DNA of 64,000 bases from an uncultured delta proteobacterium (GTDB lineage: Bacteria > Desulfobacterota > Binatia > UBA9968), in the NCBI GenBank assembly GCA_963816145.1, contig CAWFJP010000012.1:64001-128000 (forward strand), written 5' to 3'. The position numbers and the translations under genes were made by a program. How positions within the stretch are numbered: position 1 is the stretch's first letter; the number at the start of each line of letters is the position of its first letter. The notes beneath the pieces are model-generated. The model was not told the DNA's origin, made no database searches, and worked only from the letters and a program-made list of their open reading frames with translations. Below, in pieces: positions 8,978-63,042 of this stretch.

Positions 8978-9637
8978 ATGAAAAGAAAAATATTTTTGAT
9001 TGGCGCGGTGGTATTTGCAGCGTGTCTGGTCGCCGGCGGTGCTCATGCCAACTATCAGGACGATGTCGACCAGGCTGTGGCAATTATTGAAAGCTTTCAG
9101 AAAATCCCTGAGCAGGGCATTCCAACCGCGGTCCTGCGCAATGCCCGAGGTCTGGCGATCATGACCGTTACCAAGGCGGGATTTATCGTTAGCGGCAGAG
9201 GCGGTAAAGGTATTGTCATCGCCCGAACCGATACGGGCTGGAGCGGTCCTTCGGCGATCGGCACGGGAGGGATGGGCTTTGGCTTTCAAGCCGGAGCTCA
9301 GGTCTCTGAAATTGTGATTATTCTCAACACCCCTGCGGCGGTGGAAGCATTTACAAAAGACGGCGACGTTACCCTTGGGGGCAATTTGAGCATAACGGCA
9401 GGCCCCATCGGGCGCGATGCCGAAGCTAGAGTGGGATTGCAATCGGTCATGTTCTCATACAGCCGCAGCCAGGGAGTTTTCGGCGGCCTTTCGATCGAAG
9501 GCACGGTGGTGGCCACGCGCAAAGACGACAATGCGGCCTATTACGGCAAGCCCGTAGAGGCGAAAGACATTCTTGCGGGCAAGGTGCCAGCGCCGGCAGG
9601 TGCTAGCAAATTGCGGCAAATTCTCTCGAAATGGTAA
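8978..9637 (+). CDS. Lipid-binding SYLF/YSC84 domain protein
   Basis: KAGFIVSGRGGKG, WSGPS, GFQAGAQ and YSRSQGVFGGLSIEG motifs. Confidence 0.88.
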   Translation: MKRKIFLIGAVVFAACLVAGGAHANYQDDVDQAVAIIESFQKIPEQGIPTAVLRNARGLAIMTVTKAGFIVSGRGGKGIVIARTDTGWSGPSAIGTGGMGFGFQAGAQVSEIVIILNTPAAVEAFTKDGDVTLGGNLSITAGPIGRDAEARVGLQSVMFSYSRSQGVFGGLSIEGTVVATRKDDNAAYYGKPVEAKDILAGKVPAPAGASKLRQILSKW

Positions 9638-9862
9638 GCCGTCGATGGGCCGCGGGGCAAACTCTAGGTTCTGGACTTGCCGGACGGCGCGCGTCGTCCG
9701 CGCAAATGCATCGATTTCGGCTAGTGCTGGTCGAATAAGTCGCGCTTAAGCTGAATTATAGCGGGCTATACCCACTGATTTAGCCTGACGTGACGCGATA
9801 GATGCACGACCGATCTAGACCGACGTCAACGTCGCAATAGACACCCATGCCGCCGAGTTTGC

Positions 9863-10003
9863 GATACCTCACTCAATTCTTGCACCGACGACGGCTTGAT
9901 CTCGGACGACGGTGTCAATCTCGACGTTCGATTAATCAAGAAGCGGCTCGAGATGACCAAGGAAATTCCCCTGAGCCAGTTGGTGGATTGGAATTTGGTA
10001 AGA
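9863..10003 (+). pseudogene. Diverged copy of the 3' tail of SBP gene 7795..8760
   Basis: Translates DTSLNSCTDDGLISDDGVNLDVRLIKKRLEMTKEIPLSQLVDWNLVR vs parent DTSLNSFTDDGMISDKGVLLDVQLTKERLKMTKDIPLSQLVDWSLVR. Confidence 0.9.
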
Positions 10004-47832: not shown

Positions 47833-47892
47833 TTGTTACCTCCGTCAAGCCGATTAACGATTGGGCCGATCATAAGTTCCTCGAGCGAATAA

Positions 47893-49019: not shown

Positions 49020-50687
49020 ATGACCGCCGAGTTCAGTCCAGACGAACACAAACGCCTTGAGCCTTTTTTTACCAACCTCGAACGCGACACTTTCGGCCTC
49101 AAGCTGCCCCAGGAGGTCGCCGGCGCGTTATTCTCGCGCTACAGCCGCTCGGCCAAGAGTTTGCGCCGGACTTTCCTCGACGAATTTCTCGGCGATCCCG
49201 AGCTCGCCTTGAAAGATTTGCTCGGCGGCCAGCTTCCCGCCGGCGGCGACAGCGCGGCCTTGAAAAAAGCCCGGGCCTTCTTCGAGCGGGTGCTGGTCGG
49301 CTACGGCGACGATTCCGTGGCGCAGTTGGGCGGCGCGCATGTCGCCTGCGAAAATATTTCCAACGTTGCGGCGAAATTGTTGGAAGACGCGCGCATCGGC
49401 ATCGCGCCGCTGGAAAAATCGACGCGCTATGTGCGCTTCGATCAGAAGGACGCCGCCGGCGATTATCTGTTTTACCGCGAGCCCAAGATCATGGCGTCGC
49501 GCCACCGTGACACTTATCTCGAAGTGATGAATTTGCTGTTCGAGACCTATTCGAAACAGATGGAGCCGATGCTCGGTCATGTCGCCAAGTCGCTGCCCAT
49601 CGAGCAGTTGGAAGTGCGCGATCCGGTGAGCGGCAAAGGTCTGAGCTACGCCGAGGCGGCCAAGGACGAGCGCTTGAAGCGCTGGGCCGAGACCGCTTAT
49701 CGCGCTACGGTGCGGGCGCAGGCCTGTGACGTGCTGCGCAGTTATCTGCCGGCGGCGACTCTGACCAACGTCGGCATGTTCGGCGCCGGCCAGGCGTTCG
49801 AGTATCTAGTCAGCAAATTGTACTCGCACGACCTGAGCGAAGCCCAAGCAATCGGCGCGGCGATTCACGGCGAGCTCAATCAGCTCATTCCATCGTTCGT
49901 CAAGCGGGCGCAGCGCAACGACTATCTAGTAGCGACCACGGCGGCGGCGAAAGCGCTGGCGGCCCGCGCGACGACGATAATACCGGTCGCAACCAACGAA
50001 CCGGTGACGCTGGTCGATTACGATCCGGATGCGGAAGCGAAAGTCATCGCGGCGATGCTCTACGGCCACGCACGCCAGCCGCTGGAGCAATTGCGTCAAG
50101 TAGCCGCGGCGTTGAGCCAAGCGGAGCGCCGGCAAATTTTCCAAGAATTTTTCTCCAAGCGGCGCCACCGCCGCGATAGGCTCTCCCGCGCCTTCGAAAA
50201 CGTCTATTACACCTTCGACATCCTCGGCAATCTCGGCCTCTACCGCGACCTGCACCGCCACCGGATTCTCACCCAGGAACGCCAGGATTTTACCACGGTG
50301 CACGGCTACGACACGCCGCCGGAAATCGAAGAGGGAGGCTTCAAGAGCGAGTTCGACCGTTGCATGGAGCGCGCGGCGAAGTTGTGCGAGCAGATCTACG
50401 CCGATCTGCCGAGCGAAGCGCAGTACGTCGTGCCGTTCGCCTACAAGATCCGCTGGTACATGAAGCTGAACCTGCGCGAAGCCCTGCACATGTGCGAGCT
50501 CCGCACCATGCCCCAAGGCCATCCCGACTACCGTTTCATCTGCCAGGAGATGTGGCGCAAAATCCAATCCGTCCATCCGACGCTCGCCGAGTCGGGAAGG
50601 TTTATGGACTGGCAGAAGTATCGGTTGGGAAGATTGCAGTCGGAGATGCGGACGGAGTTTAAGAAGTCGGCGATGGAGAAATCATAG
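49020..50687 (+). CDS. thyX: FAD-dependent thymidylate synthase, tandem-domain type
   Basis: GYGDDSVAQL, EKSTRYV, DLHRHR and ELRT..QGH..YR motifs; 555 aa corresponds to two ThyX domains. Confidence 0.88.
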   Translation: MTAEFSPDEHKRLEPFFTNLERDTFGLKLPQEVAGALFSRYSRSAKSLRRTFLDEFLGDPELALKDLLGGQLPAGGDSAALKKARAFFERVLVGYGDDSVAQLGGAHVACENISNVAAKLLEDARIGIAPLEKSTRYVRFDQKDAAGDYLFYREPKIMASRHRDTYLEVMNLLFETYSKQMEPMLGHVAKSLPIEQLEVRDPVSGKGLSYAEAAKDERLKRWAETAYRATVRAQACDVLRSYLPAATLTNVGMFGAGQAFEYLVSKLYSHDLSEAQAIGAAIHGELNQLIPSFVKRAQRNDYLVATTAAAKALAARATTIIPVATNEPVTLVDYDPDAEAKVIAAMLYGHARQPLEQLRQVAAALSQAERRQIFQEFFSKRRHRRDRLSRAFENVYYTFDILGNLGLYRDLHRHRILTQERQDFTTVHGYDTPPEIEEGGFKSEFDRCMERAAKLCEQIYADLPSEAQYVVPFAYKIRWYMKLNLREALHMCELRTMPQGHPDYRFICQEMWRKIQSVHPTLAESGRFMDWQKYRLGRLQSEMRTEFKKSAMEKS

Positions 50688-50749
50688 GGGGACTGTCGCC
50701 GGATGCATTTCGGCCTTGCTAAGTCTTTTTTGCATGATAAAAAAGACTT

Positions 50750-51883
50750 ATGTATCCACGATTGCTCCAGGCACCCCCCAAGCAAAGCTTTTTCTTGTTC
50801 GGTCCTCGTGGGGTCGGTAAGACGGCTTGGCTGCATCAGCAGTTTCCCGGGGCGCTGTTTTTCGACTTGCTCGATCATCAAGTTTACACTCAGTTGCTTG
50901 CCCGACCCGACCGGCTCGGTGATCAGGTTCCCAAGGCATACAAGGACTGGGTCGTCATAGACGAAATTCAAAGGGTTCCGGAACTGCTCAATGAGGTGCA
51001 TCGTCTCATCGAGTCGCGCAAATTACGTTTTGCCCTGAGCGGATCGAGCGCCCGCAAACTGCGACGGCGCGGGGTGAACTTGCTGGCCGGCCGAGCGCTC
51101 ACGCGTCACATGCATCCGTTCACGGCATTGGAACTCGGCAAAGATTTTGATTTGAAACGAACCCTGCAGTACGGCTGTTTGCCGATGGCATTCACCAGCG
51201 ACCGGCCGCAAGATTATTTGAAAAGCTACGCCGCGACCTACCTGCGCGAAGAAGTCCAGCAAGAAGGTCTCGCGCGCAACATCGGCGCGTTCGGTCGTTT
51301 CATCGAGGTCGCGAGCTTTTCCCAAGGCAGCGTCCTCAACATGGCCGCCGTGGCGCGCGAGTGCGCGGTGTCGGCCAAGGTGGTGGAGGACTATTTCAGC
51401 ATTCTCGAAGACCTGCTGATCGCCGTGCGTTTGCCGATTTTTTCCAAACGCGCCAAGCGGCGGCTGGTGGCCCACCCGAAGTTCTACTATTTCGATGCCG
51501 GTGTCTTTCAAGCGGTCCGTCCTCGCGGACCGCTCGACGCCCCCGAGCAGATCCACGGACCGGCGTTGGAAACCCTGTTCTTGCAACAGGCGCGCGCGCT
51601 GAACGACTACAAGGACTTGGGCTACCGTTTGCACTATTGGCGCACCGCCGCCGGCGACGAGGTCGATTTCGTTCTATACGGAGAGCGCGGTCTGCGTGCT
51701 TTCGAGATAAAAATGGCGCACACCGTCCGCTCGGAAGATCTGCGCTCGTTGCTGAGATTCCAGGAGGATTTCCCCGAAGCTAAAATTCACTTGTTGTATC
51801 TCGGCAAACGCCGTTGGCATGATCGAGGCATTGAGATAATTCCTTTCGGGGATTGCATTGGCGAGCTCGACCGATGGCTGTAA
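50750..51883 (+). CDS. AAA+ ATPase with C-terminal DUF4143 (PD-(D/E)xK-like) domain
   Basis: GPRGVGKT, IDEIQR, KFYYFDAG and YWRT...EVDFV...EIK motifs. Confidence 0.9.
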   Translation: MYPRLLQAPPKQSFFLFGPRGVGKTAWLHQQFPGALFFDLLDHQVYTQLLARPDRLGDQVPKAYKDWVVIDEIQRVPELLNEVHRLIESRKLRFALSGSSARKLRRRGVNLLAGRALTRHMHPFTALELGKDFDLKRTLQYGCLPMAFTSDRPQDYLKSYAATYLREEVQQEGLARNIGAFGRFIEVASFSQGSVLNMAAVARECAVSAKVVEDYFSILEDLLIAVRLPIFSKRAKRRLVAHPKFYYFDAGVFQAVRPRGPLDAPEQIHGPALETLFLQQARALNDYKDLGYRLHYWRTAAGDEVDFVLYGERGLRAFEIKMAHTVRSEDLRSLLRFQEDFPEAKIHLLYLGKRRWHDRGIEIIPFGDCIGELDRWL

Positions 51884-51918
51884 AGAGAGTTCTTGAAATT
51901 GTTGAGAGTCGCGAGCGG

Positions 51919-52054
51919 TGGCGCGAGATTCGATCGAACCATCCAACCCTGTTTGACGGGGGAATTCATGGACTGGCGGAAGTATCGGTTGGGCAGATTG
52001 CAGTCGGAGATGCGGACGGAGTTTAAGAAATCGGCGATGAAAAATACAAATTGA
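51919..52054 (+). pseudogene. thyX 3' tail copy 1
   Basis: WREIRSNHPTL...FMDWRKYRLGRLQSEMRTEFKKSAMKNTN*. Confidence 0.92.
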
Positions 52055-52075
52055 GTACATCTAATCACGTCGCTA

Positions 52076-52495
52076 ATGGTAAAACGATCCATTAAAGTAC
52101 CCTCGTCTAGCGCTAATTTGCCAGCGGAACCGCAAGGTCCGTTGAGGTGTCTCGCTCTACACACCTTGGGATGGAAATCCTTCCAGGATTTATGCGCTCA
52201 AATTTGTGAAGAGGTGCTAAAGACGACACTCTCGATTTATAGGGAAGCGCAGGATGGCGGACAGGACGCTGTCTTTCTCATATCTTCGCTCGATCACGAG
52301 GGCAAGAAGAAAACGGAACGTTCCAGTGGAAATTTTGCGATCACGGCGCCGGTTGAAGCAAAGTGATCTTTCCAACGAAATTGCCACCATCTCCGATTTG
52401 TATCAACGGGGGAGGCGCACACTTATTACTCTATTACGAACATGGATGTAGATGCGCCTGTAGAAACCGAAATTCGCGGGAAGCTTGAAAGCTAG
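52076..52495 (+). pseudogene. Decayed N-terminal restriction-endonuclease-like domain (probable defence NTPase remnant)
   Basis: ALHTLGWKSFQDLCAQICEE...DGGQDA, then Q.K and YY.ITN in shifting frames. Confidence 0.55.
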
Positions 52496-53666
52496 GTGAA
52501 AAGAGCTGTCGTTGTTGTTCTGCCGATAGATATTTTGGTAGGAAAAGCCGGATCTGATCGAAGATATCGTTCTCTATGCTCACGAATAGAGGTCCCACAA
52601 ATTGGAATATAAAGCGTACTTGGACTCTGCGTCCAAGTCTTTCTGATTCTTCAATAGATCGTCGTAAATCCTGTTGATCTGTTGAAATAGATCGATGTCG
52701 CGAATTTCGAGGGAAATCGCTTGCGATATCGTTCCGGATGTACCACGGAGAACAGTTCGACTGTCTTCAATTAAAATAGGCAAATGGGAATACTGCGCTA
52801 TGAGCAATGCAACCGTTAGCGTCGTGGCAACTAGATTAGATGCCGCTGCACGAGCATCATTCACACTTGTTTTTTTAAACCGGTCTAGACTACCGTCGGA
52901 TGTGCAAGATGAGGACCGGATCGACCGTTGCAGAAGGGTGGGCGTAAGCAGGTTGACAGAAGCAATGACTCCTGGAATTGCGACGGTACGTTCTTGGTTC
53001 TGTAACATGCACGTGAGTAAGTTATGGATTTGATCCAACAATCGCCGACGCCATCCCGTATCGTGGGACATCGTCCGGATCAAGTAGAGCTTTAGTCCGA
53101 TACGCACGTGATGAATCACTCCTCTCAGAGTCTGTTTGTGCAAATCTGGATCAATCCGTGATGCGGTCATAGTTCCGATTCGATCAATGACCTACGATAT
53201 CGCGAATATTAGACACGTCGGATGAGCGAGGGCTAATATCTCTATTTGCCTTCTAAGGGAGCGCGCTTCTGAACTGTTTTGCGCGAAGTTCTGAAGCAGG
53301 CTCCCAATCTTCTAGAGAAAACACAAGTTACATGGAGGTTTATCATGACGCAAAAATCCGCTGTATGCGCTGTCATGCTCTAGGTCTTGCGAAGAACTCA
53401 GACCAATCAGTCGATCGGCTTAGAAGGCAATTTGCGAAAATTTGGACCATTCGTTTCTCGATCAGACAGCATCTTCACTTATCACCAACCGGTGTACCTG
53501 CGATTCGACGTGTGGACAATTGTAGGTCACTTGCACGGCATCAAAGATTGACAACAAAGCTGAATCTGAATCGGCCGAAGACAATTTCGACCGTCAGTTC
53601 GTTTGTAGCCACTTGAACCCGTTCGTTGGAATGACGGTCAATTCAAATTGCTGATGTAAAAATTGA

Positions 53667-53945
53667 CTAGACGCTATCGACAAGTTTCAATCTGAAGCTC
53701 ATTCTCTTGGAACGATGAAAAGGGCAATAATGGCAACTGACGGCTTTATTGATCACGTTGTCGGGGATGCTTGCGATCGGAAGAGGTTCAGTTTCTGGAT
53801 ATTGCGCTTTCAGTCCGGAATACAATAAGCCAGGAAGCAAATCACCTACTGCTGGAGCTGTGGTTTCGAAACGGATTTCGAAAATCACCTCAACGAGCGG
53901 GCTTTTTCCTAACGCAACCGGCATCTTGGAATCCATTGGTATCAA
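53667..53945 (-). pseudogene. TIGR04255-like protein N-terminal remnant
   Basis: LGKSPLVEVIFEIRF motif; truncated; AT-rich context. Confidence 0.55.
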
Positions 53946-54084
53946 ATCGCCCTTCTGCTATCTAGGCATCCTTTGTATGGGCCATTATACTGTTAATAAT
54001 TAAGTTCACAAATGTTAGGTCTAATGCAATGACGAGTTGTGATGGTTCCAGCGTGCGCATACGTCGCGAAGATTAGCCATCACT

Positions 54085-54325
54085 CATGATTTTTCATTGA
54101 GGATTTGACTCAACAATTTCTCCAGCGGGCGGAGATCTTTTGATTCTTGGGCGTCGCTATCGAAGTATTTGAGATTGTCGGTGCGCTGCTCTTGCGCGAG
54201 TATTATGATCCTTGGGGATATCGGTGCGCCGGGAGTTTTTCGAATCGCCGGGTTGACTCATTCTTTTTGAAGGGCGATCTGGCCGTCGCGGGAGAGATAC
54301 CAATTGATGAACACCTTGGCGGCGG
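54085..54325 (-). pseudogene. Diverged copy of the 3' tail of SBP gene 61080..62216
   Basis: AAKVFINWYLSRDGQIA...SQPGDSKNSRRTDIPKDH...QEQRTD...RPLEKLL matches 61078-61321. Confidence 0.9.
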
Positions 54326-54464
54326 ATGCCCATGTGTGACGACTCGTCTAAAAGTCCGTAGGTAAATATACATACCCGATTGACCGAAACATTCATCGGT
54401 GGTATCCGCCTATTGCTCGCGGGGTGAAGTGATCGGTTCGAATATAATCGAAGGATGGTGTCGT

Positions 54465-55451
54465 ATGGTTCGAACGATACTCCTGGTATTAGCTCTTTTG
54501 CTTCCCTACTCAGTCAGCGCGGCGACCAAGACTGCGATTCCATTGCGGGTGGCCTACAGTTCGATCTCCGGAGCTGGGATCGTTACTTGGATCGCGGCAG
54601 ATAAGGGATTGTTCGCCAAGCACGGGCTCAATGTCGAGTTGATCTACGTGGCCGGCTCTCAGGCGATGCAATCGCTGCTCGGTGGCACCACGGTTATGGG
54701 GATCCAGGGCATCGAGCCTGTTTTCAGGGTCAACCTTCACGGCTCCGACACGGTGATGATTTTCGGCATCGTGACCAAGCCGACGTTCTCCATCATTGTG
54801 CGGCCGGAGATTAAAGAGTACCGGGAATTGAAGGGCAAGCCGATGGGTGTGACTCGCTACGGCTCGTCCACCGATATGTTGCTTCGGCTGACTCTCGAAA
54901 AGTGGGGTTTCAAACCGGAAATCGATGTTCCGATACTACAAATGGGCGGTGTGCCGCCGATCTTGGCGGGCATGCAATCCGGCACAATCTTTGGCGGCCC
55001 GTTGTCGCTGCCGACGCTGGCCCGCGCCAAGCAGGAAGGGTACCGCGAATTGGCCGATGTGGCGGACCTGATTCCGGATTATCAGGTGGCTGGAATCGTC
55101 ACACGGCGGTCTTTCATAAAAGAGAACCCCGAGATCGTGCGCGGATTCGTCAGGGCCATGACCGAGGCCATCGCCATGTTCAAAAACAACCCCGAAGCGG
55201 TCAAAGAGGTGATGAAGAATCGGCTCAAGATCGACGACCCGGCGGTGATCGAGGAAACCCAGAAAACCTATCCGAAGTACATGCCGAATGTTCCCTACCC
55301 AAGCAAAGCGGGCATCACGGTGATCAAGAATTTTCTCGAAAAAACCGAGCCGGCGCTGCGCAAGTTGTCGATCGACGATCAGATCGACAATCGGTTCGTG
55401 CGGGAAATGGAAGAAAGCGGCTTTCTCCGTGAAGTCAACCGCACTAAGTGA
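54465..55451 (+). CDS. ABC substrate-binding protein (NMT1-like)
   Basis: KGLFAKHGLNVELIY, LKGKPMGVTRYGS and FVREMEESGF motifs. Confidence 0.87.
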   Translation: MVRTILLVLALLLPYSVSAATKTAIPLRVAYSSISGAGIVTWIAADKGLFAKHGLNVELIYVAGSQAMQSLLGGTTVMGIQGIEPVFRVNLHGSDTVMIFGIVTKPTFSIIVRPEIKEYRELKGKPMGVTRYGSSTDMLLRLTLEKWGFKPEIDVPILQMGGVPPILAGMQSGTIFGGPLSLPTLARAKQEGYRELADVADLIPDYQVAGIVTRRSFIKENPEIVRGFVRAMTEAIAMFKNNPEAVKEVMKNRLKIDDPAVIEETQKTYPKYMPNVPYPSKAGITVIKNFLEKTEPALRKLSIDDQIDNRFVREMEESGFLREVNRTK

Positions 55452-55494
55452 CGCTCAATTATATTGGCCCAATATCGGCGTGAAGCTCGTGCAG

Positions 55495-55675
55495 GAGCTT
55501 GGGGCCAGGCCTACTATCGTCGGACCCACTTTGCAATTTATTCTCTGGTTGCGCTGATCGGATCGCTATCCCGCGCGGGATTATTGCGAGTTAGCGTTGT
55601 TTGAATAACTTGTTCATAAAAACTTCGCGCACCAGGCGATCGACGAGGGAGTTGTCGGCGATGGTCTCGACGCCG
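55495..55675 (-). pseudogene. Diverged copy of the 3' tail and downstream region of SBP gene 60063..61055
   Basis: VETIADNSLVDRLVREVFMNKLFKQR* vs parent VETVADNSILDRLVREGFIDKLFKQR*; the downstream DNA also matches 59947-60062. Confidence 0.9.
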
Positions 55676-55677
55676 CT

Positions 55678-55820
55678 CGCCCCGATCGGCTAACAGCGCG
55701 TGGTCCCGATGGTGGGTTGGATCCCGACGCCAGGTGCAGACCTATCTCCACCTACATCGCCAGCACCGCAGCGCCTGGGCGTCCCAGATCGAATTGCGTC
55801 CCTGGGTGGAGAAATTTTAG
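55678..55820 (+). pseudogene. Inverted, diverged copy of the 3' tail of SDR gene 62281..62982
   Basis: RPDRLTARGPDGGLDPDA..QTYLHLHRQHRSAWASQIELRPWVEKF* vs parent ...RPWSEKF*. Confidence 0.92.
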
Positions 55821-56051
55821 CGCACCGGCGGTTATTGTGAACCCGTCGCCGGCAGATTGCGTCTAATGGCATGTGTCAATGTCGAATCGGCGAGCCCCTC
55901 TCGGTTGGGGGCGGGACGTATTGTGGAGGCTGATCGACTGTTTTAGTATGCCAATTTGCATCGTCGTATTAAGGGGCTTTGAACTTCGGTGCGGATCAAT
56001 GCCAACGAGAAACGGTCAGTCATGGGCAAATCATCTGATAGAACCAGTCGA

Positions 56052-56939
56052 ATGAAGCTGCGCTCTCTGTTTGTCGTCTCGGCAATTGCTTTTGCCCTAC
56101 TTGCTGCCGGTTGTAATCTTATACTGGAACCGATCGAGCAGCGATTCCTGTTTCGGCCTTGGGGCGGGGACCCCATGAAGCTTGCATCGGTTGCTGCACG
56201 CGACAACGGCATCGAGGAAGTTCGGCTGCCGACGGCCGACGGCGTGACGCTGCATGGCTGGCTCAAGCGCCCCAAGGTGGCGCCGGCAGTTGGACGCTTT
56301 CCGCTCGTGATCGTATTCGGCGGCGCGCGCAGGGAAACTTCCTGGATAATGGATCTTGCCGACAAACCCGAGCATTGGGGCTGGCTATTTATCAATTACC
56401 GAGGCTTCGGACTATCGGAAGGCGAACCGTCCGAGCGTATTGTCCTGGCGGATACCCGTCTCATATACGATTACGCCGCGGCAAGGCCCGACGTAGATGC
56501 GACAAATATCGTGGTGCTTGGCCGGAGCCTGGGCACTTATTTCACGGTTGCCTTGGCCCGCAGCCGCGCCTTGCGCGGCGCGATCCTCGCCACGCCGTTC
56601 GATAGCATCGCCGCAGTCGGCGAAGAGCGCTATCCGTGGCTGCCGGTCGGGCTGATTCTTAATGGCCGCTATGACGCGGCCGCCCTCGCGCCGAAGATCA
56701 AAGTTCCCGCGCTGTTTGTCTTAGCCGAAAACGACGACGTGACTCCGGTGGAGAATGGCGCCGCACTCGCGCGCGCCTGGGGTGGACCGCAAAAAATTCT
56801 GACCTTGGCGGGCGCGCGCCACTACGGCATCGAGCGGCGGCCGGAATTCTGGAGCGCAGTGACGGATTTTCTCAGCGCCATCGAACCGGCCGCTTCGCGC
56901 CGCGACGATTACGCCGGACAACTCGGCGCGAAGCCGTAA
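56052..56939 (+). CDS. Alpha/beta hydrolase (putative lipoprotein)
   Basis: LAAGC lipobox; NYRGFGLSEGEPSE, GRSLG, D and H motifs. Confidence 0.87.
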   Translation: MKLRSLFVVSAIAFALLAAGCNLILEPIEQRFLFRPWGGDPMKLASVAARDNGIEEVRLPTADGVTLHGWLKRPKVAPAVGRFPLVIVFGGARRETSWIMDLADKPEHWGWLFINYRGFGLSEGEPSERIVLADTRLIYDYAAARPDVDATNIVVLGRSLGTYFTVALARSRALRGAILATPFDSIAAVGEERYPWLPVGLILNGRYDAAALAPKIKVPALFVLAENDDVTPVENGAALARAWGGPQKILTLAGARHYGIERRPEFWSAVTDFLSAIEPAASRRDDYAGQLGAKP

Positions 56940-57024
56940 ACTGCGACCCTTTCGTTCCATGCGTTGCAGCTTTTTTGTCCACGGCTAAATTTACCGAACA
57001 GACCGATAAGTAGTGTATAGTTGT

Positions 57025-57195
57025 TCAGGCGGCATAACGAACATGTTTTTCGAGAAACAGGTTTTTGATGAGCTGAGTCTGCATCTGGCGCCGGAACACA
57101 TGACGGCGCAGCGTGGCCATCATCTCAACCTTGCCGCGCGGACGGCTCTTGCCCAAGGCATGGTTGTTCACATCTTGTTTGATTAGTTCATCGGG
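57025..57195 (-). mobile_element. IS630-family transposase C-terminal remnant
   Basis: PDELIKQDVNNHALGKSRPRGKVEMMATLRRHVFRRQMQTQLIKNLFLEKHVRYAA* resembles IS630 C-termini. Confidence 0.75.
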
Positions 57196-57253
57196 GCGGA
57201 CGCGGGACTGCCAAAACCTGACATCTGGCGTTGCCGCGGAGTGAGATCGAGCG

Positions 57254-59191
57254 ATGCAAAGTGTTTCTCATGACGTAGTTGGCCTGCCGGCACAACAACA
57301 AGCTCTCCAGGCGCGATGCTTCCACCCGACGGAGACGTTTATCGAGTTTAGGAAAGAGGAGATTGACCAGTCCATCCCGGCGCGCTTCGAAGATCAGGTA
57401 CGCAAACATTCTCAACGGCTGGCCATCAAGACCAAGGAGATTGCACTCACCTATGATGCGCTGAACAGGGCGGCAAATCGCATAGCGCACGCTCTCCTGG
57501 CGAGACGTGGAGAGGGACAAGAGCAGGTGGCGATATTCTGTCACCAAGGCGCCGTGGCGATCACCGCGATGCTCGCCGTGCTGAAAGCGGGCAAAACCTA
57601 CGTGCCTCTGGATCCCATGGCGCCAAACCCGCGGAATCGGCAAATCCTCGGCGATGCTCAGATCGGACTTATCCTTGCCGACGCCGAAACTGTTTCACTC
57701 GCCGCCGATCTGGCGCAAAACGAGTTCGGCGTGATGAGTATCGCTAGTCTGGAGTCGAGTTTTTCCAGTGACAATCCCGGGCTCGGTATCTCACCCGATC
57801 GTCTTAGCTACATCATGTATACCTCCGGGTCCACAGGCGAACCCAAGGGGGTTATGCAGAATCATCGGAACGTACTCGACAAAACCAGGGGATGGGTCAA
57901 CGTTGTCCACATCTCGCCGGGAGATCGCTTGAGCCTATTGCGATCGCTTGATGTTAGCGGCTCGATCCGAGATCTATTTGGCGGCTTGCTCTGCGGTGCG
58001 ACAGTTCTTCCCTTCGACGTGAAGAGGGAGGGACAGATGCATTTAGCCGACTGGTTGGTGGATGAGGAGATCACAATCTACAATTCGGTGGTAACGCTAT
58101 TCCGTAACTTGGGCAGCACATTGACCGGTTCTGAGAGTTTTGCCAGCGTTCGCGTGATCAAATTAAGCGGTGAACCGGTGCGCAAGCGTGACGTCGAAAT
58201 CTATAAGAAATATTTTCCGTCGCACTGCCTGGCGATCAATATGTTGGCGTCAGCGGAGGTCGGCAGCACCCGAGTCTATTTCATCGACAAGGAAACCGCC
58301 ATTCCCGACACTCTAGTGCCGATAGGTTATCCGTTGGAAGGATGCGAAGTCCTTCTACTCGACAACGATGGCAATAAGCTCGGCTTCGACGAAGTAGGTG
58401 AAATCGCCGTGCGGAGCCGCTACCTATCGCCGGGATACTGGCGCAGGTCAGACCTTACTCAAGCCTGTTTTCTTGCCGACCCTGAAGGCGGTGATGCGCG
58501 CATCTTTCGCACGGGAGACCTCGGTTCCATGCGTCCGGATGGATGCCTAGTGCACCGGGGACGCAAAGACTTCCACGTAAAGATCAGAGGATATAGCGTC
58601 GAGATCGCCGAGGTTGAAGCGGCGTTGCTCGAACTTGACGCGGTGAAACAAGCCGTGGTCACGACTAGGGCAAACGCCCAGGGAAACCAAGTTTTGGTAG
58701 GTTATGTCGTCCTGACCGGGAAGACTACCCTCACCGTTAGCGCGATCAGGAAAGCTCTGGCCGCAAGGGTACCGGACTATATGATCCCTTCGGCCTTTAT
58801 TTTCTTGGACAGCCTTCCGCTCATCGGCCCCGGAAAAGTGAACGTCCGCGCCCTTCCGGACCCGGGCAAGACGCGCCCGGACCTCGAAGTGCCCTTTGCC
58901 CTGCCGCGCGACCCGGTCGAGGAAAAAATAGTCAAAATCTGGTCCGAGATTCTAGGCTTAAATGAGGTCGGAATTCACGACCGTTTCTTAGAACTGGGCG
59001 GAGATTCGTTGCTCGCCACAAGGGTAATTTCCCGAATCATTGTCACTTTCCGTTGCGATTTGCCGATGCGAACTTTTTTCGCGGAACCCACTGTCGCCGC
59101 TCTAGCCGCTGTGGTGGCGCGGAACGAAACGAAGCCGTCCACGTCGGAAAAAATCAAGCGCGCGCCGAGGTCGAAGCACATTTGGAAATAA
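57254..59191 (+). CDS. Stand-alone NRPS-like adenylation-thiolation didomain
   Basis: YTSGSTGEPKG, GEIAV, FRTGDLG, GRKD..VKIRG, GKVN and LGGDSLLA motifs. Confidence 0.92.
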   Translation: MQSVSHDVVGLPAQQQALQARCFHPTETFIEFRKEEIDQSIPARFEDQVRKHSQRLAIKTKEIALTYDALNRAANRIAHALLARRGEGQEQVAIFCHQGAVAITAMLAVLKAGKTYVPLDPMAPNPRNRQILGDAQIGLILADAETVSLAADLAQNEFGVMSIASLESSFSSDNPGLGISPDRLSYIMYTSGSTGEPKGVMQNHRNVLDKTRGWVNVVHISPGDRLSLLRSLDVSGSIRDLFGGLLCGATVLPFDVKREGQMHLADWLVDEEITIYNSVVTLFRNLGSTLTGSESFASVRVIKLSGEPVRKRDVEIYKKYFPSHCLAINMLASAEVGSTRVYFIDKETAIPDTLVPIGYPLEGCEVLLLDNDGNKLGFDEVGEIAVRSRYLSPGYWRRSDLTQACFLADPEGGDARIFRTGDLGSMRPDGCLVHRGRKDFHVKIRGYSVEIAEVEAALLELDAVKQAVVTTRANAQGNQVLVGYVVLTGKTTLTVSAIRKALAARVPDYMIPSAFIFLDSLPLIGPGKVNVRALPDPGKTRPDLEVPFALPRDPVEEKIVKIWSEILGLNEVGIHDRFLELGGDSLLATRVISRIIVTFRCDLPMRTFFAEPTVAALAAVVARNETKPSTSEKIKRAPRSKHIWK

Positions 59192-59321
59192 AAGCGCCAG
59201 TACTTTTGTCTAATGGGGAGAAATGGACATTTCAAACTTATGCGTCGTCCATGGGAATTGCAAAACCGAAACATGGAATGAGGGAACGATAAGGAAACTA
59301 GGCTCGCGCCGGCCCCCAAGT

Positions 59322-59396
59322 AAGTATCGACTTGGGCGATTATAATCGGAGATGCGGACGGAGTTTAAGAAGTCGGTGTTGCAAAACATGGAATAG
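59322..59396 (+). pseudogene. thyX 3' tail copy 2
   Basis: KYRLGRL*SEMRTEFKKSVLQNME*. Confidence 0.9.
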
Positions 59397-59445
59397 GCTA
59401 CTGGAAGACGTGGATTTCGCAGATCGGGTTCAGAGGTGTCAAAAA

Positions 59446-59764
59446 ATGAAGAAGACAAAACGAGAATTTCTCCGGGTAAATCGGGGGCACTGATAAGTAG
59501 CTTATCCGCTGGACAAAGTTATATGACGTATTCGATCGCCTGGGAACTGGCGTATCTGAAGTAATGAAGGATCACGGCGATTTATTAGATGAGGTTCTTC
59601 GAGAAGCGATCTTACAAGACAACATCGTCCAGCTTAATATGAGCCTGCCTCCAGCCATGAAGGCCGTGCTAGGCAAGCCTGTGCGCCAGCGCACGACGGA
59701 TGCGACGACCCTTGCTCGCATATGTCTCGCGGAACGATTGGAACGAGAAGTAAAAGCGGGTTGA
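59446..59764 (+). pseudogene. Decayed small antitoxin-like (RHH/CopG-type) gene
   Basis: Broken N-terminus (MKKTKR...), then LNMSLPPAMKAVL...TTDATTLARICLAERL. Confidence 0.4.
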
Positions 59765-59828
59765 TTTGACAAAATGTTAGCCGTTCCCCGATGCTGCCGC
59801 TCTAAAAAATCAATACTCAGGCCTGCCC

Positions 59829-59936
59829 CGGATTTTCTCAACGCCATCGAACCGGCCGCTTCGGGCCGCGACGATTACGCCGGGCAACTCGGCACGAAGC
59901 CTTAAACTGCGACCCTCTCGTTCCACGCGTTGCGGC
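59829..59936 (+). pseudogene. Copy of the 3' tail and downstream region of hydrolase gene 56052..56939
   Basis: DFLNAIEPAASGRDDYAGQLGTKP* followed by actgcgaccct; matches 56863-56970. Confidence 0.92.
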
Positions 59937-60062
59937 ATTTGGGCGAGAGCTTAGGGTCATGTCTACTTTGGAATTATTCCCAGGCTTGCTTTCGAACGCG
60001 CTTTACTAATTATTCCCTGGGTGCACTGATCCAGTCGCTATCCAGCTTGGGTTTATGGCCGG

Positions 60063-61055
60063 CTAGCGTTGTTTGAATAACTTGTCGATAAAACCTTCGC
60101 GCACCAGCCGGTCGAGGATCGAGTTGTCGGCGACGGTCTCGACGGCGATCGGCTTTTTGCCCATGAACTCGACGATCGGTGCGATCGCTTCGGGCTCAAC
60201 GCGCGGGACGCGCTCCAAGAACTTTACCGAATCGGTGTACAGTTCTTCGATCAAGCGCTGATCTTTGAGGCGGGTGTATTTCTCAATCACTTTGAACGCG
60301 CGATCTTTCTGGTTGTGCGTTGCGGCGACGCCTTCGAGGTAGGCGCGGGTAAAGGCTTCGGCCAGCTCGGGCGAGCGGCGCAGGTAGTCGCGCGTCAGGG
60401 CGATCACGATGTTGGAGTATTGAATGTCGAGCTCGTTCATGTCGACGAGCATGCGCATCGGCGCGTTGACGCGCAGCGCGGATATCACCGCGCCGGCAAT
60501 CTGTTTGAGTTGAAACGCTGCGGCGATTTCTGTGGTGCCGCCGAACTGGCGCACCGTGACCGCGCCGTCGAGTCCCTTTTTGCGCAACAGCATCCGCGTC
60601 ATGTTGTCGGTCACCGAGCCGAAGCGCGAAACGCCCAAGGTCTTGCCGCGCAATTGCTCGACGCGGGTGATTTCCGGCTGCGTCCATAAGCGATAATAGG
60701 GCCGATTCACCAGACTCATGATCGCAACCAGCGGCGCTCCGCCCAGCACGGCGGCGATCACCGAGTTGGTCGCGGCAAATCCGCCCTGCAAATCGCCGCC
60801 GATCAAGGCCTGCACGACGATCGGTCCGGAAGAAATAAAGATCAGATCGGCATCGATGCCGTATTTTTCGAAGGCGCCGGTCTCCTTGGCCATCCACAGG
60901 CCGGTGCCGGCAGGCCCGACGGTGGAATATCCGAGCGTGAATTTCTTGAGATCGGCTGCGGTCGCCCCGTTGCACAACCAGAAAATCATTGAAATAACCG
61001 TCAACGCTTTTGCAAACGGGCGGCAGATTGCGTTATGAGCGTGCGCAGGTTTCAT
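60063..61055 (-). CDS. ABC substrate-binding protein (NMT1-like)
   Basis: GAFEKYGIDADLIF and LRGKTLGVSRFGS motifs. Confidence 0.87.
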   Translation of the reverse strand: MKPAHAHNAICRPFAKALTVISMIFWLCNGATAADLKKFTLGYSTVGPAGTGLWMAKETGAFEKYGIDADLIFISSGPIVVQALIGGDLQGGFAATNSVIAAVLGGAPLVAIMSLVNRPYYRLWTQPEITRVEQLRGKTLGVSRFGSVTDNMTRMLLRKKGLDGAVTVRQFGGTTEIAAAFQLKQIAGAVISALRVNAPMRMLVDMNELDIQYSNIVIALTRDYLRRSPELAEAFTRAYLEGVAATHNQKDRAFKVIEKYTRLKDQRLIEELYTDSVKFLERVPRVEPEAIAPIVEFMGKKPIAVETVADNSILDRLVREGFIDKLFKQR

Positions 61056-61079
61056 CGGATGGCGCGGTCGGTTCGATGA

Positions 61080-62216
61080 TTACGATTTCTCGCCGAGAAT
61101 CTGCGTCAGCAGCTTCTCCAGCGGCCGCAGGTCTTTTGAATCCGGCGCGTCGCTGTCGAAATAGTTCAGATGGTCGGTGCGCTGCTCTTGCGCCGGGACA
61201 TGGTCTTTGGGGATATCGAGGCGGCGCGAGTTCTTTGAATCGCCGGGCTGGCTCATTTCTTTTTGAAAAGCGATTTGGCCTTCGCGCGAAAGATACCAAT
61301 TAATGAATACTTTGGCGGCGTTGGGATGAGGCGCGCGGTTCATGAGTGCCAGTTGTCCGAACGCGGACGAGATATTGATGCCCTCTTTGAAGTGGGTGAT
61401 GGAAAAATCGGAAATCGGCAGGCCCTGATTCTTGGCCTTGATCACCGCGGAATCCTGGCAGGGGACACAGACCGCGACCTTGCCGCTGGCAACCCAGTCG
61501 ACAGCTTGACGGATTTCACCGGCCATCACCACTTCCATCTCGCTAAAGAGTCGTTGGACAAACTTCACGCCGAGCTCTTTGTGGTAATAAAGATACTGCC
61601 AGGAGGCGCCGGCGCCGCGGACTCTGCGTGGGTCGACGGAGGTGATTTTGCCCTTCAGCTTGGGATTGAGAAGATCCCAGTAGGATCGGTACTCGGCGGG
61701 ATTCAATAGTTGGGTGTTATAGGCCGCGTTGCCGCCGCTCGAGACGTTGCCCTCGTAGACGAAGATGTAGCGGCTGTCCCGGTCGGTGTACTTGTGAGTT
61801 TTCTCCCACCACTTGGAGGTGTCGGTAACCTCGGGAAGAATCAGCGCCGGTTTGATCGGATCGAGAAACTTGGCGAGATAGAGCGCTTGGTATAGAGAAT
61901 TGCCGCCGCCGTTATAGACGTCAGCCAGATATTTTTCGCCGCGCCGTTCGGCGGCGATGCGCTGGCTCAAGTCGGTGCCTGAGCCGCCAATGGTGACCAC
62001 TTTGATCTTGGGAAAAGCTTTCTGAAAGGCGCCGGACTCGATGACTTTGCTGTAGCCGGAAAAGTACAGGGTAACTTGCCCCTCGGCTTCCGCCGCTTTG
62101 ACGGTTTTGTCCCATTCCGCGCGCCAGGCCTCTGCCGCCGGACTCATTTGAGGCGCAAAAAGGATCGCCAGCCAGGTAATTACCAAGATTAAAACTCTCG
62201 CCGTGTTGTGATTCAT
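61080..62216 (-). CDS. Extracellular solute-binding protein (Fe3+/thiamine-like cluster)
   Basis: WDKTVKAAEAEGQV, SYWDLLNPKLKGKI and APHPNAAKVFINW motifs. Confidence 0.87.
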   Translation of the reverse strand: MNHNTARVLILVITWLAILFAPQMSPAAEAWRAEWDKTVKAAEAEGQVTLYFSGYSKVIESGAFQKAFPKIKVVTIGGSGTDLSQRIAAERRGEKYLADVYNGGGNSLYQALYLAKFLDPIKPALILPEVTDTSKWWEKTHKYTDRDSRYIFVYEGNVSSGGNAAYNTQLLNPAEYRSYWDLLNPKLKGKITSVDPRRVRGAGASWQYLYYHKELGVKFVQRLFSEMEVVMAGEIRQAVDWVASGKVAVCVPCQDSAVIKAKNQGLPISDFSITHFKEGINISSAFGQLALMNRAPHPNAAKVFINWYLSREGQIAFQKEMSQPGDSKNSRRLDIPKDHVPAQEQRTDHLNYFDSDAPDSKDLRPLEKLLTQILGEKS

Positions 62217-62280
62217 CCGAATACAAACCCCTGAATGCTGACCTTTTCTACCTGACCGCGCCGTTCCGCCAATTGTTTTG

Positions 62281-62982
62281 CTAAAACTTTTCCGACCACG
62301 GTCGTAACTCAATCTGCGATGCCCATGCGCTGCGGTGCTGGCGGTGCAGGTGGAGATAGGTCTGCGCAATGGCGTCCGGGTCGAGACAACCGTCGGGGCC
62401 GCGTTCGGTGAGTCGTTCCGGGCGCTCCGGGTTGGTGATGCCGCCGTCGATCACCACTTGCGCGACGTGAATATTTCGCGGCTGCAGCTCGCGCGCCATG
62501 CTTTGCACCAGTCCGGTCAAACCCATTTTCCCCATGGCGAATGCCGGAGAGTTGGCGTAGCCTTTGACGCTCGCGGACGCGCCGGTGAATAGGATCGTGC
62601 CGCTGCCGGCTTTGATCATGCGCTTGGCCGCCTCCTGGCCGATCAGAAAGCCGCCATAACAGGTAATCAAGATCGTCTGGCGCACGTCTTCGGGGTCGAG
62701 ATCGGTGACCGGACCGCGGACACGGCCGCTGGCGTTGTAGACGACGAGATTGGGATCGCCGATATCTTGGCTCACCGACTGGAATAGCTTTTTCACGTCC
62801 GTCGGGCTGCTCGCATCGCAAGCGTAGGCGCGGCCGTCGATTTCTTTGACCAAGCCGTCCAGTTTCTTGACGTTGCGCGAGGCCATTGCCACCTTCATTC
62901 CTTCTTTCTTGAACAGCCTTGCCAACGAAGCGCTCAATCCCGGTCCGCTGCCGACAATCAATGCGATTTCTGGTTGTGCCAT
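62281..62982 (-). CDS. SDR family oxidoreductase
   Basis: GSGPGLS, YNAS, FTGASAS and QSMARELQP motifs. Confidence 0.9.
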   Translation of the reverse strand: MAQPEIALIVGSGPGLSASLARLFKKEGMKVAMASRNVKKLDGLVKEIDGRAYACDASSPTDVKKLFQSVSQDIGDPNLVVYNASGRVRGPVTDLDPEDVRQTILITCYGGFLIGQEAAKRMIKAGSGTILFTGASASVKGYANSPAFAMGKMGLTGLVQSMARELQPRNIHVAQVVIDGGITNPERPERLTERGPDGCLDPDAIAQTYLHLHRQHRSAWASQIELRPWSEKF

Positions 62983-63042
62983 GGCGATCCTCCAACGGCG
63001 GGATATTAAGATGAACTCGGGCTGTCAATCAAGACAACGAAG

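Follow-up and report, generated by a model that had tools for sequence, protein, structure and literature searches.

The variable locus that separates thyX from a convergent SBP/SBP/SDR group (two solute-binding protein genes, SBP, and a short-chain dehydrogenase gene, SDR) contains six short 3'-end gene fragments, here termed stubs, which lie among cargo genes and each resemble the end of an intact gene nearby. These stubs are probably the result of 3'-end displacement by homology-anchored additive recombination, which would have occurred repeatedly. This reading is favoured because of the orientation rule of the stubs, the genome-wide excess of tails over heads, the low dN/dS between stub and parent gene, an empty site in relatives, shared units, recurrence, the absence of tyrosine integrase genes near the events and a pairing seed in thyX. 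The window, a stretch of 64,000 nt, belongs to the contig termed C12 in the genome-wide counts; coordinates are window positions (Table 1).

Table 1. Features of the focal locus and of a second event in the window. SBP genes are named by their start coordinate; alignments are given as parent ~ stub.
Feature	Position	Strand	Support	Alignment with parent
Second, simple event: intact 321-aa gene 7795-8760, Ysc84-domain cargo 8918-9637, stub 9844-9999 (last ~155-170 nt of the gene)	7795..9999	+		
thyX, intact, 555 aa, parent of two stubs	49020..50687	+	Pfam Thy1 1.7e-39	
Cargo 1, AAA_14 + DUF4143 ATPase	50750..51883	+	Pfam	
thyX stub 1, about the last 135 nt, own stop codon	51918..52044	+	repeat finder, self-BLASTN	50552-50675 ~ 51918-52039, 82% over 124 nt, E 6e-29 (self-BLASTN); last 80 nt 93% identical (repeat finder)
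Low-GC block (GC 0.45-0.48) with gene fragments	52045..54087	.		
SBP 61080 stub, last 237 nt, ends at stop codon	54088..54324	-	repeat finder, self-BLASTN	61084-61320 ~ 54088-54324, 80% over 238 nt, E 2e-54 (self-BLASTN)
Cargo, NMT1-family SBP, distant paralogue of SBP 60063	54399..55451	+	Pfam	
SBP 60063 stub, last 89 nt + 71 nt of downstream DNA	55520..55679	-	repeat finder, self-BLASTN	59992-60151 ~ 55520-55679, 81% over 160 nt, E 4e-37
SDR stub, last 144 nt, inverted relative to intact SDR	55678..55821	+	repeat finder, self-BLASTN	62280-62424 ~ 55821-55678, inverted, 77% over 145 nt, E 4e-25 (self-BLASTN)
Alpha/beta hydrolase, parent of one stub	55989..56939	+	Pfam Hydrolase_4 and related families	
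Cargo, stand-alone NRPS adenylation + carrier protein (A-T), AMP-binding + PP-binding	57254..59191	+	Pfam	
thyX stub 2, about the last 75 nt	59322..59400	+	repeat finder, self-BLASTN	50616-50670 ~ 59322-59376, 85%, E 1e-11 (self-BLASTN)
segX segment, with thyX stub 2 one 'tail + cargo' unit	59444..59773	.		
Hydrolase stub, last 77 nt + 35 nt downstream	59829..59940	+	repeat finder, self-BLASTN	56863-56974 ~ 59829-59940, 92% over 112 nt, E 6e-41
NMT1-family SBP, intact, parent of one stub	60063..61055	-	Pfam	
SBP_bac_1 solute-binding protein, intact, parent of one stub; listed TTG start probably too far upstream	61080..62369	-	Pfam	
SDR (adh_short), intact, nearest relative of the SDR stub	62281..62982	-	Pfam	

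The stub/parent pairs were obtained by self-BLASTN of positions 46001-64000 and a repeat finder. All six tail copies reported in the initial annotation are present, with coordinates shifted by only 1-25 nt, and all of them end at the stop codon or past it. The gene names given there agree with the Pfam families in Table 1. Its statement that 5'-end-only copies are lacking also holds for the self-BLASTN of this region, where the remaining self-matches were those between the thyX stubs, a 73% inverted upstream-region pair (46025-46125/63034-63143) and a 22-nt palindrome. In the 7.8-Mb genome, the best match of every stub is the adjoining intact gene and not another paralogue. Both thyX stubs and the single stubs of SBP 61080, SBP 60063 and the hydrolase are in direct orientation downstream of their parents. 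As for the inverted SDR stub, an SDR gene is located upstream of the same hydrolase as an intact pair in the relatives G014 (locus L042) and G006 (L043), the spacing in L042 being similar (304 nt vs 287 nt). Judged by this gene order, the SDR stub is the stump of the SDR-hydrolase pair still intact in these two relatives. Intact SDR orthologues in G004, G009 and G019 are 88-89% identical.

A TIGR04255 family protein is represented in the low-GC block by its first ~52 residues (53667-53945, minus strand), and two ORFs of the block had no Pfam match. The closest own-genome relative of the NMT1 cargo is found on C14 (71% identical). A second A-T gene resembling that of the locus lies on C29 in another stub-flanked block, and an additional copy of segX, for which the family search gave no match, occurs on C31 with 82% identity. 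Searches of the focal locus for tRNA genes and Rfam families gave no match.

The initial annotation noted that many differences between stubs and parents are synonymous. This applies to the stubs of SBP 61080 (32.5 synonymous vs 13.5 non-synonymous differences; pS 0.66 vs pN 0.07), SDR (23.5 vs 7.5) and to thyX stub 2 (5 vs 1), but not to thyX stub 1 (10 vs 10) or the stubs of SBP 60063 (3 vs 8) and the hydrolase (2 vs 3).

The 3' preference extends across the genome. A survey of this one genome, based on the author's own crude gene caller and including events at one locus that are not mutually independent, gave 37 gene 3'-end stubs downstream of an intact parent in the same orientation against 12 mirror-image 5' stubs (p=0.0005). 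Three other parameter sets yielded 37/12, 33/11 and 30/9 tails/heads, and a looser definition that also counts fragments within short ORFs yielded 56/16 and 48/13. The direct downstream arrangement accounts for 37 of the 48 3'-end stubs, against an expectation of 12 with four equally likely arrangements (p=6e-14). In most of the 37 events, 1-10 cargo genes separate parent and stub, and many cargoes are single ordinary genes. Among 30 scanned cargo proteins, a Pfam family was assigned to 23, one was transposase-like (DUF772) and none was an integrase. Some cargoes elsewhere in the genome are toxin-antitoxin pairs, the parents there not being toxins. Stub and parent are 74-96% identical across events. 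About half of the events lose homology at the stop codon, and in the others it continues for 20-330 nt; such a pattern would be expected if non-coding sequences of diverged lineages could not be aligned any more.

The pooled stub/parent dN/dS was 0.213 (95% CI 0.166-0.284; 37 pairs, 1713 codons, 8 stops), and the five C12 pairs alone gave 0.169. If the target had been duplicated in place, as in insertion with long target duplication, and one copy had then decayed neutrally, a value of at least ~0.5 would be predicted. The pooled dN/dS therefore indicates that stub and parent diverged as working alleles and did not result from decay after local duplication. The stubs, first described as copies of neighbouring genes, are thus rather the remains of other alleles, and leftovers of one local duplication fit poorly.

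The ancestral state was examined at the second, simple event at 7795-9999. According to the match table, 10 relatives have an empty site in which the 321-aa gene is directly followed by the post-stub flank of the window. The base-by-base check found stub and flank collinear with the relative's own gene end in all five empty-site loci fetched; in the sixth locus fetched, that of G002, the Ysc84 cargo is present. This shows that the stub and its downstream flank are the ancestral arrangement. Two other events did not offer a clean empty site: at C14:535738, G003 has stub, cargo and parent while the flank is elsewhere in other relatives, and at C29:45846 the parent is almost without orthologues.

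In the empty-site relatives, parent tail and stub of the 7795-9999 event both align to one sequence. The same is described for insertion with long target duplication by Furuta, Abe & Kobayashi 2010 (PMC2853133), where restriction-modification genes without a mobility gene have long direct repeats on both sides; these vary in length, and some overlap a gene 3' end. The interleaved order of thyX, hydrolase, thyX stub and hydrolase stub also resembles a tandem duplication pattern, and, as the Ysc84 event may be older than the split from G002, duplication is not excluded by the 20% divergence alone. Such an origin is nevertheless quite unlikely. Even the upper bound of dN/dS (0.28), with its signature of purifying selection, is below the expected value, there are merely 8 stop codons in the 1713 codons, and the end of about half of the repeats at a stop codon would be an odd coincidence for a duplication boundary. 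The repeats given in PMC2853133 are nearly identical (44/46 to 417/423), unlike the more diverged ones found here.

Islands that integrases insert into the 3' ends of genes or tRNA genes, e14 in icd for example, regenerate the gene and leave the old 3' end at the far side. An intact gene, an island, a displaced 3' end and a 3' preference are their classic signature, and the stubs might be read as decayed islands of site-specific integrases that were lost or act from elsewhere. This is very unlikely here. A search directed at tyrosine recombinases (PF00589) gave 11 matches in the genome, none within 50 kb of any of the 37 events and none on C12. The target genes are different and number dozens, the repeats reach 460-600 nt, the cargoes are very small, and no tRNA gene is involved. 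The thyX stubs start at varying distances from the stop codon, ~75 to 265 nt across genomes, with differing left edges in the window (two), G004 (two), G007, L071, L086 and L095, which argues against a fixed att core.

Strains with different cargo could have been stitched together in long-read metagenome assembly, and the genome is indeed a metagenome bin with 6.7% estimated contamination. Artefact is extremely improbable, since junctions of the same types were found in independent metagenome contigs and in related genomes. The junction from DUF4143 to thyX stub 1 is spanned by contigs of X2, X1 and X14. A 1832-nt X1 contig covers 54493-56323, with the SBP 60063 stub, the SDR stub and the hydrolase, and another (58128-59375) links the NRPS gene to thyX stub 2. 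X2 and X14 come from other studies, while X1 may be the source sample. Arrays of the same kind are also found in other genomes of the genus.

Relatives share units of the locus in a different order. G004 has thyX-segX, stub-DUF4143, stub, whereas the window has thyX-DUF4143, stub ... stub-segX; segX follows directly after intact thyX in G004 with 82% identity (L011 17258-16930). The DUF4143 ATPase gene lies after a thyX stub in G004 and after thyX in L085, where a 43-nt stub follows. The thyX-DUF4143-stub arrangement was seen in three genome contexts. Of 26 Binatia-type loci with 1 kb or more of downstream sequence, 4 carry extra thyX stubs of at least 100 nt, as do 2 of 11 G-handle loci; the two sets may overlap. 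Arrays are also found at the same genes in several species, namely at thyX and at the C14:536584 orthologue in G017. The shared units are as diverged (DUF4143 80% at the nucleotide level, segX 82%) as the genomes themselves (thyX 86%), so recent unit exchange is not visible.

Homologous pairing would need a conserved stretch. A near-invariant block of 31-41 nt is present in the thyX tail (50631-50672), and the exact block is common to both stubs and to the intact thyX of 6 of 9 relatives, so a pairing seed is available. Genome-wide, an exact shared block of at least 25 nt occurs in 13 of the 37 pairs. Recombination should be very inefficient for DNAs that differ by ~20%, which counts against the proposal. 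Against it also stand the low number of pairs with such a block, the two unclean sites on C14 and C29 and the missing donor. Identity between the thyX stubs and all 12 thyX genes compared lies at 72-88%; the largest advantage of a relative over the resident gene is 3-6 points, measured over 56-132 nt, and carries no weight. The SDR stub shows 75-77% identity to all SDR genes sampled. No donor emerged from these thyX genes or from the SDR and SBP relatives sampled.

In the additive recombination favoured here, DNA of a related lineage would bring a conserved gene end together with that lineage's own downstream genes and would pair with the resident gene via the conserved tail. After joining, the resident gene would keep a complete 3' end followed immediately by the imported genes; the former 3' end and its downstream DNA would be moved further downstream as a silent stub. 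The joining might rely on homologous pairing at only one end, the other being joined illegitimately (homology-facilitated illegitimate recombination, HFIR), or might be a single crossover of a circle with 'tail + cargo'; no dedicated recombinase would be needed in either case. With regard to DNA entry by natural transformation or conjugation, homologues of ComEC and DprA are present in the genome, as in 10-11 of 14 control genomes, and Ku was not found in it. The order of the focal stubs departs from the simple pushing downstream proposed initially, thyX stub 2 lying beyond the stubs from the other side and the SDR stub being inverted. It is unlike simple two-sided pushing and calls for extra assumptions, and the nested array could have arisen by repeats from both sides of the convergent gap plus import of stub-holding blocks. 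The excess of tails over heads most likely reflects survival and opportunity: tails would be harmless because they lack promoter and start codon, and variable genes may tend to sit behind gene ends. The initial 'tail-swap' interpretation is partly supported: the 3' bias, the junctions and the dN/dS speak in its favour; its local copies, simple pushing and 'undescribed' route need correction, and no donor was identified.

The same architecture and two integrase-free models have been published for rhs and type VI secretion system (T6SS) loci (PMC2935791, PMC5361080). At rhs loci (Jackson et al. 2009, PMC2935791), same-sense 3' fragments line up behind an intact gene, each starting with a conserved piece of variable length and bearing its own downstream module, in an array that lacks a recombinase. 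A circle of 'core piece + tip' is proposed to enter by one homologous crossover, shunting the old end downstream; a variable toxin tip and immunity gene are displaced, and the diversity is thought to be selected. For Vibrio cholerae T6SS effector genes, sequential displacement by HFIR is proposed (Kirchberger et al. 2017, PMC5361080). There a module enters via a conserved upstream anchor, the old 3' end and downstream gene are pushed back, and arrays grow by repetition without an integrase; the process is confined to effector-immunity clusters, in which retention of the immunity gene is adaptive.

The present arrays resemble those of rhs, CDI and T6SS loci in the intact gene with same-sense downstream fragments, here 37 genome-wide, and in the variable-length conserved start with its own module, as in stub+segX and stub+DUF4143 reordered in G004. 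With the T6SS case they share the shifted old end, the arrays built up by repetition, the lack of an integrase and, if the proposed recombination applies, entry through a conserved anchor. Unlike rhs, the pattern is genome-wide and concerns ordinary genes (thyX, solute-binding proteins, dehydrogenase, hydrolase), the conserved end itself is displaced, and the module consists of whole unrelated genes. No Rhs, CDI or T6SS domains were found in the focal locus by Pfam, there is no toxin-immunity exchange, and, unlike in T6SS arrays, the retained parts have no apparent function. A displacement process so far described mainly at toxin loci would here be acting at ordinary genes. HFIR in transformable bacteria (de Vries & Wackernagel 2002; Prudhomme et al. 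2002; Meier & Wackernagel 2003, via PMC2884548, PMC5361080, PMC3240628) adds foreign DNA without a mobile element through one homologous anchor and one illegitimate join; in these accounts it is a laboratory mechanism of low measured frequency. A join within the anchor gene would leave such a stub.

The circle model already proposed for rhs tips (PMC2935791) suggests a further reading, in which tail-stub recombination frees a 'tail + cargo' circle and a transferred circle re-enters the same gene by a single RecA crossover. It is possible, though doubtful, that such RecA-only cassettes use conserved tails as portable homology handles, with circles re-entering the corresponding gene of other Binatia cells. 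A self-sustaining integrase-free cassette system, with tails as portable attachment sites and stubs as working parts and not mere scars, is somewhat less likely still. The different ranks of the same units in the window and G004, the three contexts of thyX-DUF4143-stub, the arrays at the same genes in several species and the long exact blocks kept in stubs are consistent with it. However, no circle or excision product was seen among the contigs examined, and two contig joints of the 'goes back' type are the DUF4143-to-stub junction of strains with a different stub. The divergence of the shared units hides any recent spread, and head stubs at about one third of the tail number fit a general process better than a dedicated one. 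If RecA-only cassettes were real, a large share of the lineage's gene gain would proceed via ordinary gene ends without a mobile-element enzyme, stubs would both record and promote exchange, and the 3' preference would be built in and not only a survival bias.

For annotation, displaced stubs should not be labelled pseudogenes of local duplicates, and island finders keyed on integrases or tRNA genes will miss such loci. Under additive recombination, stubs would be datable fossils that hold the acquisition boundary, the old side and part of the displaced allele. Integrase-free acquisition could then be mapped across genomes by searching for direct downstream 3' stubs with low dN/dS, and the same search could test the generality of the displacement known from toxin loci. 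If additive recombination is indeed at work, this large-genome soil lineage often gains genes without integrase, transposase or phage, and a conserved gene end together with the cell's own recombination system would suffice.

The focal locus lies in a metagenome genome of 7.8 Mb in 31 contigs, and the window covers positions 64001-128000 of contig C12. A gap of 9.4 kb separates thyX from a convergent block of three genes and contains five intact genes. Four encode a DUF4143 ATPase, an NMT1 SBP, an alpha/beta hydrolase and a stand-alone NRPS A-T protein; the fifth is possibly a small ORF in segX. Also in the gap are a low-GC block, 2 kb long and made up of gene debris, and six short 3'-end matches to intact genes of the same locus (E 1e-11 to 2e-54 in a self-comparison of 18 kb). 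These silent gene ends, termed stubs, correspond to thyX (twice), SBP61080, SBP60063, the SDR and the hydrolase. The best genome-wide partner of each of the six is the adjacent gene, never another paralogue. All six extend to the stop codon, and two continue 35 and 71 nt past it. The initial annotation had reported no 5'-end-only copies at this locus, and none was found in the 18-kb self-comparison.

Coordinates of the main features in the window
Feature	Position	Strand	Remark
321-aa gene	7795-8760		followed by a Ysc84-domain gene, then by its stub; simple second event
Stub of the 321-aa gene	9844-9999		last 155-170 nt of the gene
Dispersed repeat, ~205 nt	12236-12440		
Inverted pair, first copy	46025-46125		just upstream of the gene start at 46137 (plus strand)
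thyX	49020-50687	+	left border of the variable stretch
thyX stub 1	51918-52044		
Low-GC block	52045-54087		GC 0.45-0.48 vs ~0.57; made of gene fragments
TIGR04255 family protein fragment	53667-53945	-	covers only positions 4-52 of the 252-position model
thyX stub 2	59322-59400		
segX	59444-59773		adjoins thyX stub 2
NMT1-type SBP (SBP60063)	60063-61055	-	convergent block
SBP_bac_1 protein (SBP61080)	61080-62369	-	convergent block
SDR	62281-62982	-	convergent block
Inverted pair, second copy	63034-63143		just upstream of the SDR start at 62982 (minus strand)

No matches were obtained in tRNA and Rfam scans of positions 45000-64000, no tyrosine recombinase gene was found on the contig (C12) in a PF00589 search, and comparison with the whole genome revealed no multi-copy repeats at the focal locus. 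In NCBIfam, segX and most of the ORFs in the low-GC block had no match. The DUF4143 ATPase was considered as a mobile agent and rejected, since the four further DUF4143 matches in the genome lie outside the stub-flanked events. The dispersed repeat of ~205 nt recurs at 81-83% in at least seven other sites of the genome and at many sites in relatives; a second family of ~190 nt lies upstream of C14:537939 on another contig, and both families are absent from the focal locus. The two copies of the inverted pair are 73% identical, and pieces of it recur on contigs C27 and C30 with no Rfam match; the pair may be a shared regulatory element.

Between 30 and 54% of the sampled words of the locus are contained in 20 public metagenome runs, and contigs from four runs of four studies were compared. 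A 250-nt contig of run X2 leads from the DUF4143 end into thyX stub 1; contigs of X1, possibly the source sample, and of X14, which like X2 comes from another study, contain this junction too, but their stub sequence differs. Contigs of 1832 and 1248 nt from X1 cover positions 54493-56323 (the end of SBP54399, two stubs and the start of the hydrolase) and the stretch that links the NRPS gene to thyX stub 2, respectively. Because junctions are bridged by contigs from other runs and similar arrays occur in other genomes, chimeric assembly is very unlikely. Back-jumping contig joints leading from 51893/51895 to 50552/50556 were considered as circles and rejected: the 23-29 intervening letters match 51896-51917 with few changes, so that these joints represent the DUF4143-to-stub junction with a different stub.

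The four runs provide almost no cover of the low-GC block (52218-54113), with both sides covered; no contig spans the block, so its absence is not implied. Contigs of X1 and X5 diverge leftward of 54067, and the block may be a recent strain-specific insertion. Loose contig ends were found at 50670 (X5), 54067 (X1, X5), 55646 (X1, X5), 55821 (X2) and 61335 (X1, X5); by eye, the sequence past 55646 has no clear continuation of the SBP gene. Their position at stub borders suggests other arrangements in other populations.

If a stub arises by local duplication and then decays neutrally, a parent-stub dN/dS of ~0.5 or more is expected. The pooled ratio for 37 pairs across the genome (1713 codons, eight stop codons) was 0.213 (Nei-Gojobori; bootstrap 95% interval 0.166-0.284). 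It was 0.220 without contig C12 and 0.169 for the five C12 pairs alone. The inverted SDR pair showed 23.5 synonymous versus 7.5 non-synonymous differences. The two classes of 5' fragments gave 0.61 and 0.84, as expected for similarity without coding constraint. The tail-to-parent ratio, which the initial annotation had named as a check, thus argues against duplication in place. Most of the divergence (dS ~0.5) therefore arose while both copies worked as genes, which points to separate lineages and late truncation. Alignments often end at the stop codon because the non-coding DNA is too diverged to align.

The 3' bias that the initial annotation proposed to test was borne out by self-comparison of every 40-kb stretch of the genome (378 stretches, 2565 local matches), with 6664 genes called crudely by a simple codon-usage scorer. 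Repeat pairs consisting of a genic and a non-genic copy were scored for gene part, orientation and side; each fragment was counted once, with a tolerance of 100 nt at either gene end. Among 3'-end fragments, 37 were direct and downstream of the parent and 11 fell into the other three arrangements; among 5'-end fragments, 12 were direct and upstream and 22 were arranged otherwise. Counted within this one genome, where several events share a locus, tails thus exceeded heads by 37:12 (binomial p=0.0005). Three other parameter sets gave 37:12, 33:11 and 30:9, and a looser count, which admits fragments within short ORFs and so keeps heads with their own start codon, gave 56:16 and 48:13 (p ~1e-5 to 1e-6). 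Under the strictest overlap, heads also favoured the mirror arrangement (9 of 15, p=0.004). Head stubs exist and are about one third to one quarter as numerous as tails.

Most events enclose 1-10 genes between parent and stub. Pfam families were assigned to 23 of 30 of these cargo proteins from smaller events. Among them are toxin-antitoxin parts (PemK, ParD, DUF4258/DUF2283), four NMT1 binding proteins, a luciferase-like oxygenase, FadL, an MFS transporter, HtpG, carbonic anhydrase, CinA, acyl-CoA dehydrogenase, an AAA ATPase, a Ysc84-domain protein and a second NRPS A-T protein. A single protein is transposase-like (DUF772), and no integrase was present among the 30 proteins scanned. The 11 PF00589 matches in the genome are all more than 50 kb away from each of the 37 events. 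Another stand-alone NRPS A-T gene (661 aa) lies in a second stub-flanked block at C29:198500-206900 (G000, the own genome; locus L033), where two genes nearby have left stubs as well (460 nt at 83% and 176 nt at 89%). A-T genes seem to be recurrent cargo; one is also located behind thyX in the related genome G019.

The older side could be recognized at the simple event that begins with the 321-aa gene. According to the hit table, ten relatives have this gene directly followed by the post-stub DNA of the window. In all five empty-site loci fetched, stub and flank are collinear with the relative's own gene end and flank; the sixth locus, from the closest relative here (G002), has the cargo too. 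The stub and its downstream DNA are therefore ancestral, and the complete gene end with the cargo is the addition. Against 30 genomes of the genus, no clean empty site was found for C14:533300-538200 or C29:43300-48500. In the relative G017, the orthologue of C14:536584-537939 (C17:89831-92724) has its own, longer tail stub of 427 nt ~1.1 kb downstream. Displacement hotspots thus recur at the same gene, with different stub lengths in the two species.

Read from right to left, the focal stubs are properly nested. SBP61080 brackets SBP60063 on one side, and its stub with SBP54399 stands on the other; SBP60063 and its stub bracket the SDR stub, the hydrolase and the hydrolase stub; the NRPS gene, thyX stub 2 and segX lie in turn between the hydrolase and its stub. 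The pair of thyX and stub 2 cuts across this nesting, and stub 2 with segX was therefore not pushed from the resident thyX. They may have arrived within an imported block, or a stub may have served as a recombination anchor. The SDR stub, placed 168 nt upstream of the hydrolase gene start, was rejected as the displaced end of the resident SDR. It is the stump of an imported SDR-hydrolase pair, since an intact SDR gene adjoins the hydrolase upstream in the relatives G014 and G006, and the spacing between matched segments is similar, at 304 nt in G014 versus 287 nt in the window.

Behind thyX, the related genome G004 has first segX (82% to the window) and then the DUF4143 gene (80% nt, 86% aa), the latter preceded by a thyX stub of 177 nt and followed by one of 190 nt; the SDR orthologue (88%) of this genome is located ~10 kb beyond the second stub. 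In the window, thyX-DUF4143 is followed by stub 1 and, after ~7 kb, by stub 2-segX. Both species therefore have the same two units of tail plus downstream DNA in different ranks. The locus L085 has thyX-DUF4143 and then a 43-nt stub piece, and the relative G007 a single 136-nt thyX stub. Among 35 Binatia-type public loci, which may overlap with these relatives, 26 extended 1 kb or more past thyX; four of the 26 contained extra stubs of at least 100 nt and three more had pieces of 41-55 nt, all in direct orientation. Left edges of the thyX stubs vary from case to case, and right edges are mostly at or near the gene end. The window thyX, both its stubs and six of nine relatives' genes share an identical block of 31-41 nt, located 15-55 nt before the stop, that would offer an available pairing seed. 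The window ThyX (555 aa, two-part) has full-length relatives in Binatia at 68-92%; others, at 39-48%, occur in Nitrosopumilus and other Thaumarchaeota, in Aenigmarchaeota and Micrarchaeota MAGs and in a Roseiflexaceae MAG, a distribution that appears odd for a housekeeping enzyme.

Pairing at ~20% divergence should be rare. Compared with 12 thyX genes, neither the window's three thyX tails nor three relatives' stubs pointed to a clear donor, and no fetched relative was closer to the SDR, SBP60063 and SBP61080 stubs than the resident gene. The DUF4143 and segX units shared with G004 resemble each other no more closely than the genomes do, and recent exchange is therefore not demonstrated.

By analogy, the architecture can be described as '3'-end displacement', in which incoming DNA would enter through a conserved gene part, bringing a complete end and its own downstream genes, and the old end would be shunted downstream. 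Two integrase-free models appear for rhs/T6SS loci in the available text of two papers: a 'core piece + tip' circle formed by repeat recombination and re-entering by a single homologous crossover (PMC2935791), and homology-facilitated illegitimate recombination (PMC5361080). Joining by a circle carrying tail and cargo fits the reshuffling of units and the persistent exact blocks. A general, undirected process fits as well, given that head stubs exist and the cargo is ordinary. ComEC and DprA are present here but nearly universal in control genomes; a homologue search found no Ku in this genome. Under '3'-end displacement', the excess of tails would be best explained by survival and opportunity, because a promoterless, start-less tail is presumably harmless and variable DNA would tend to lie behind the ends of genes.

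Events of this kind are already known, with the rhs/T6SS loci as the comparison. A genome-wide account of such stubs at non-toxin genes was not found in the literature searched, though one may exist, and the supplements to the cited papers could hold more non-toxin cases. What is new here is the dense and nested arrangement, with six stubs in 9 kb; the genome-wide count, with its rule of orientation and its bias towards tails; the signature of selection that speaks against local duplication; and the finding that units recur and are reshuffled across species at a single housekeeping gene.
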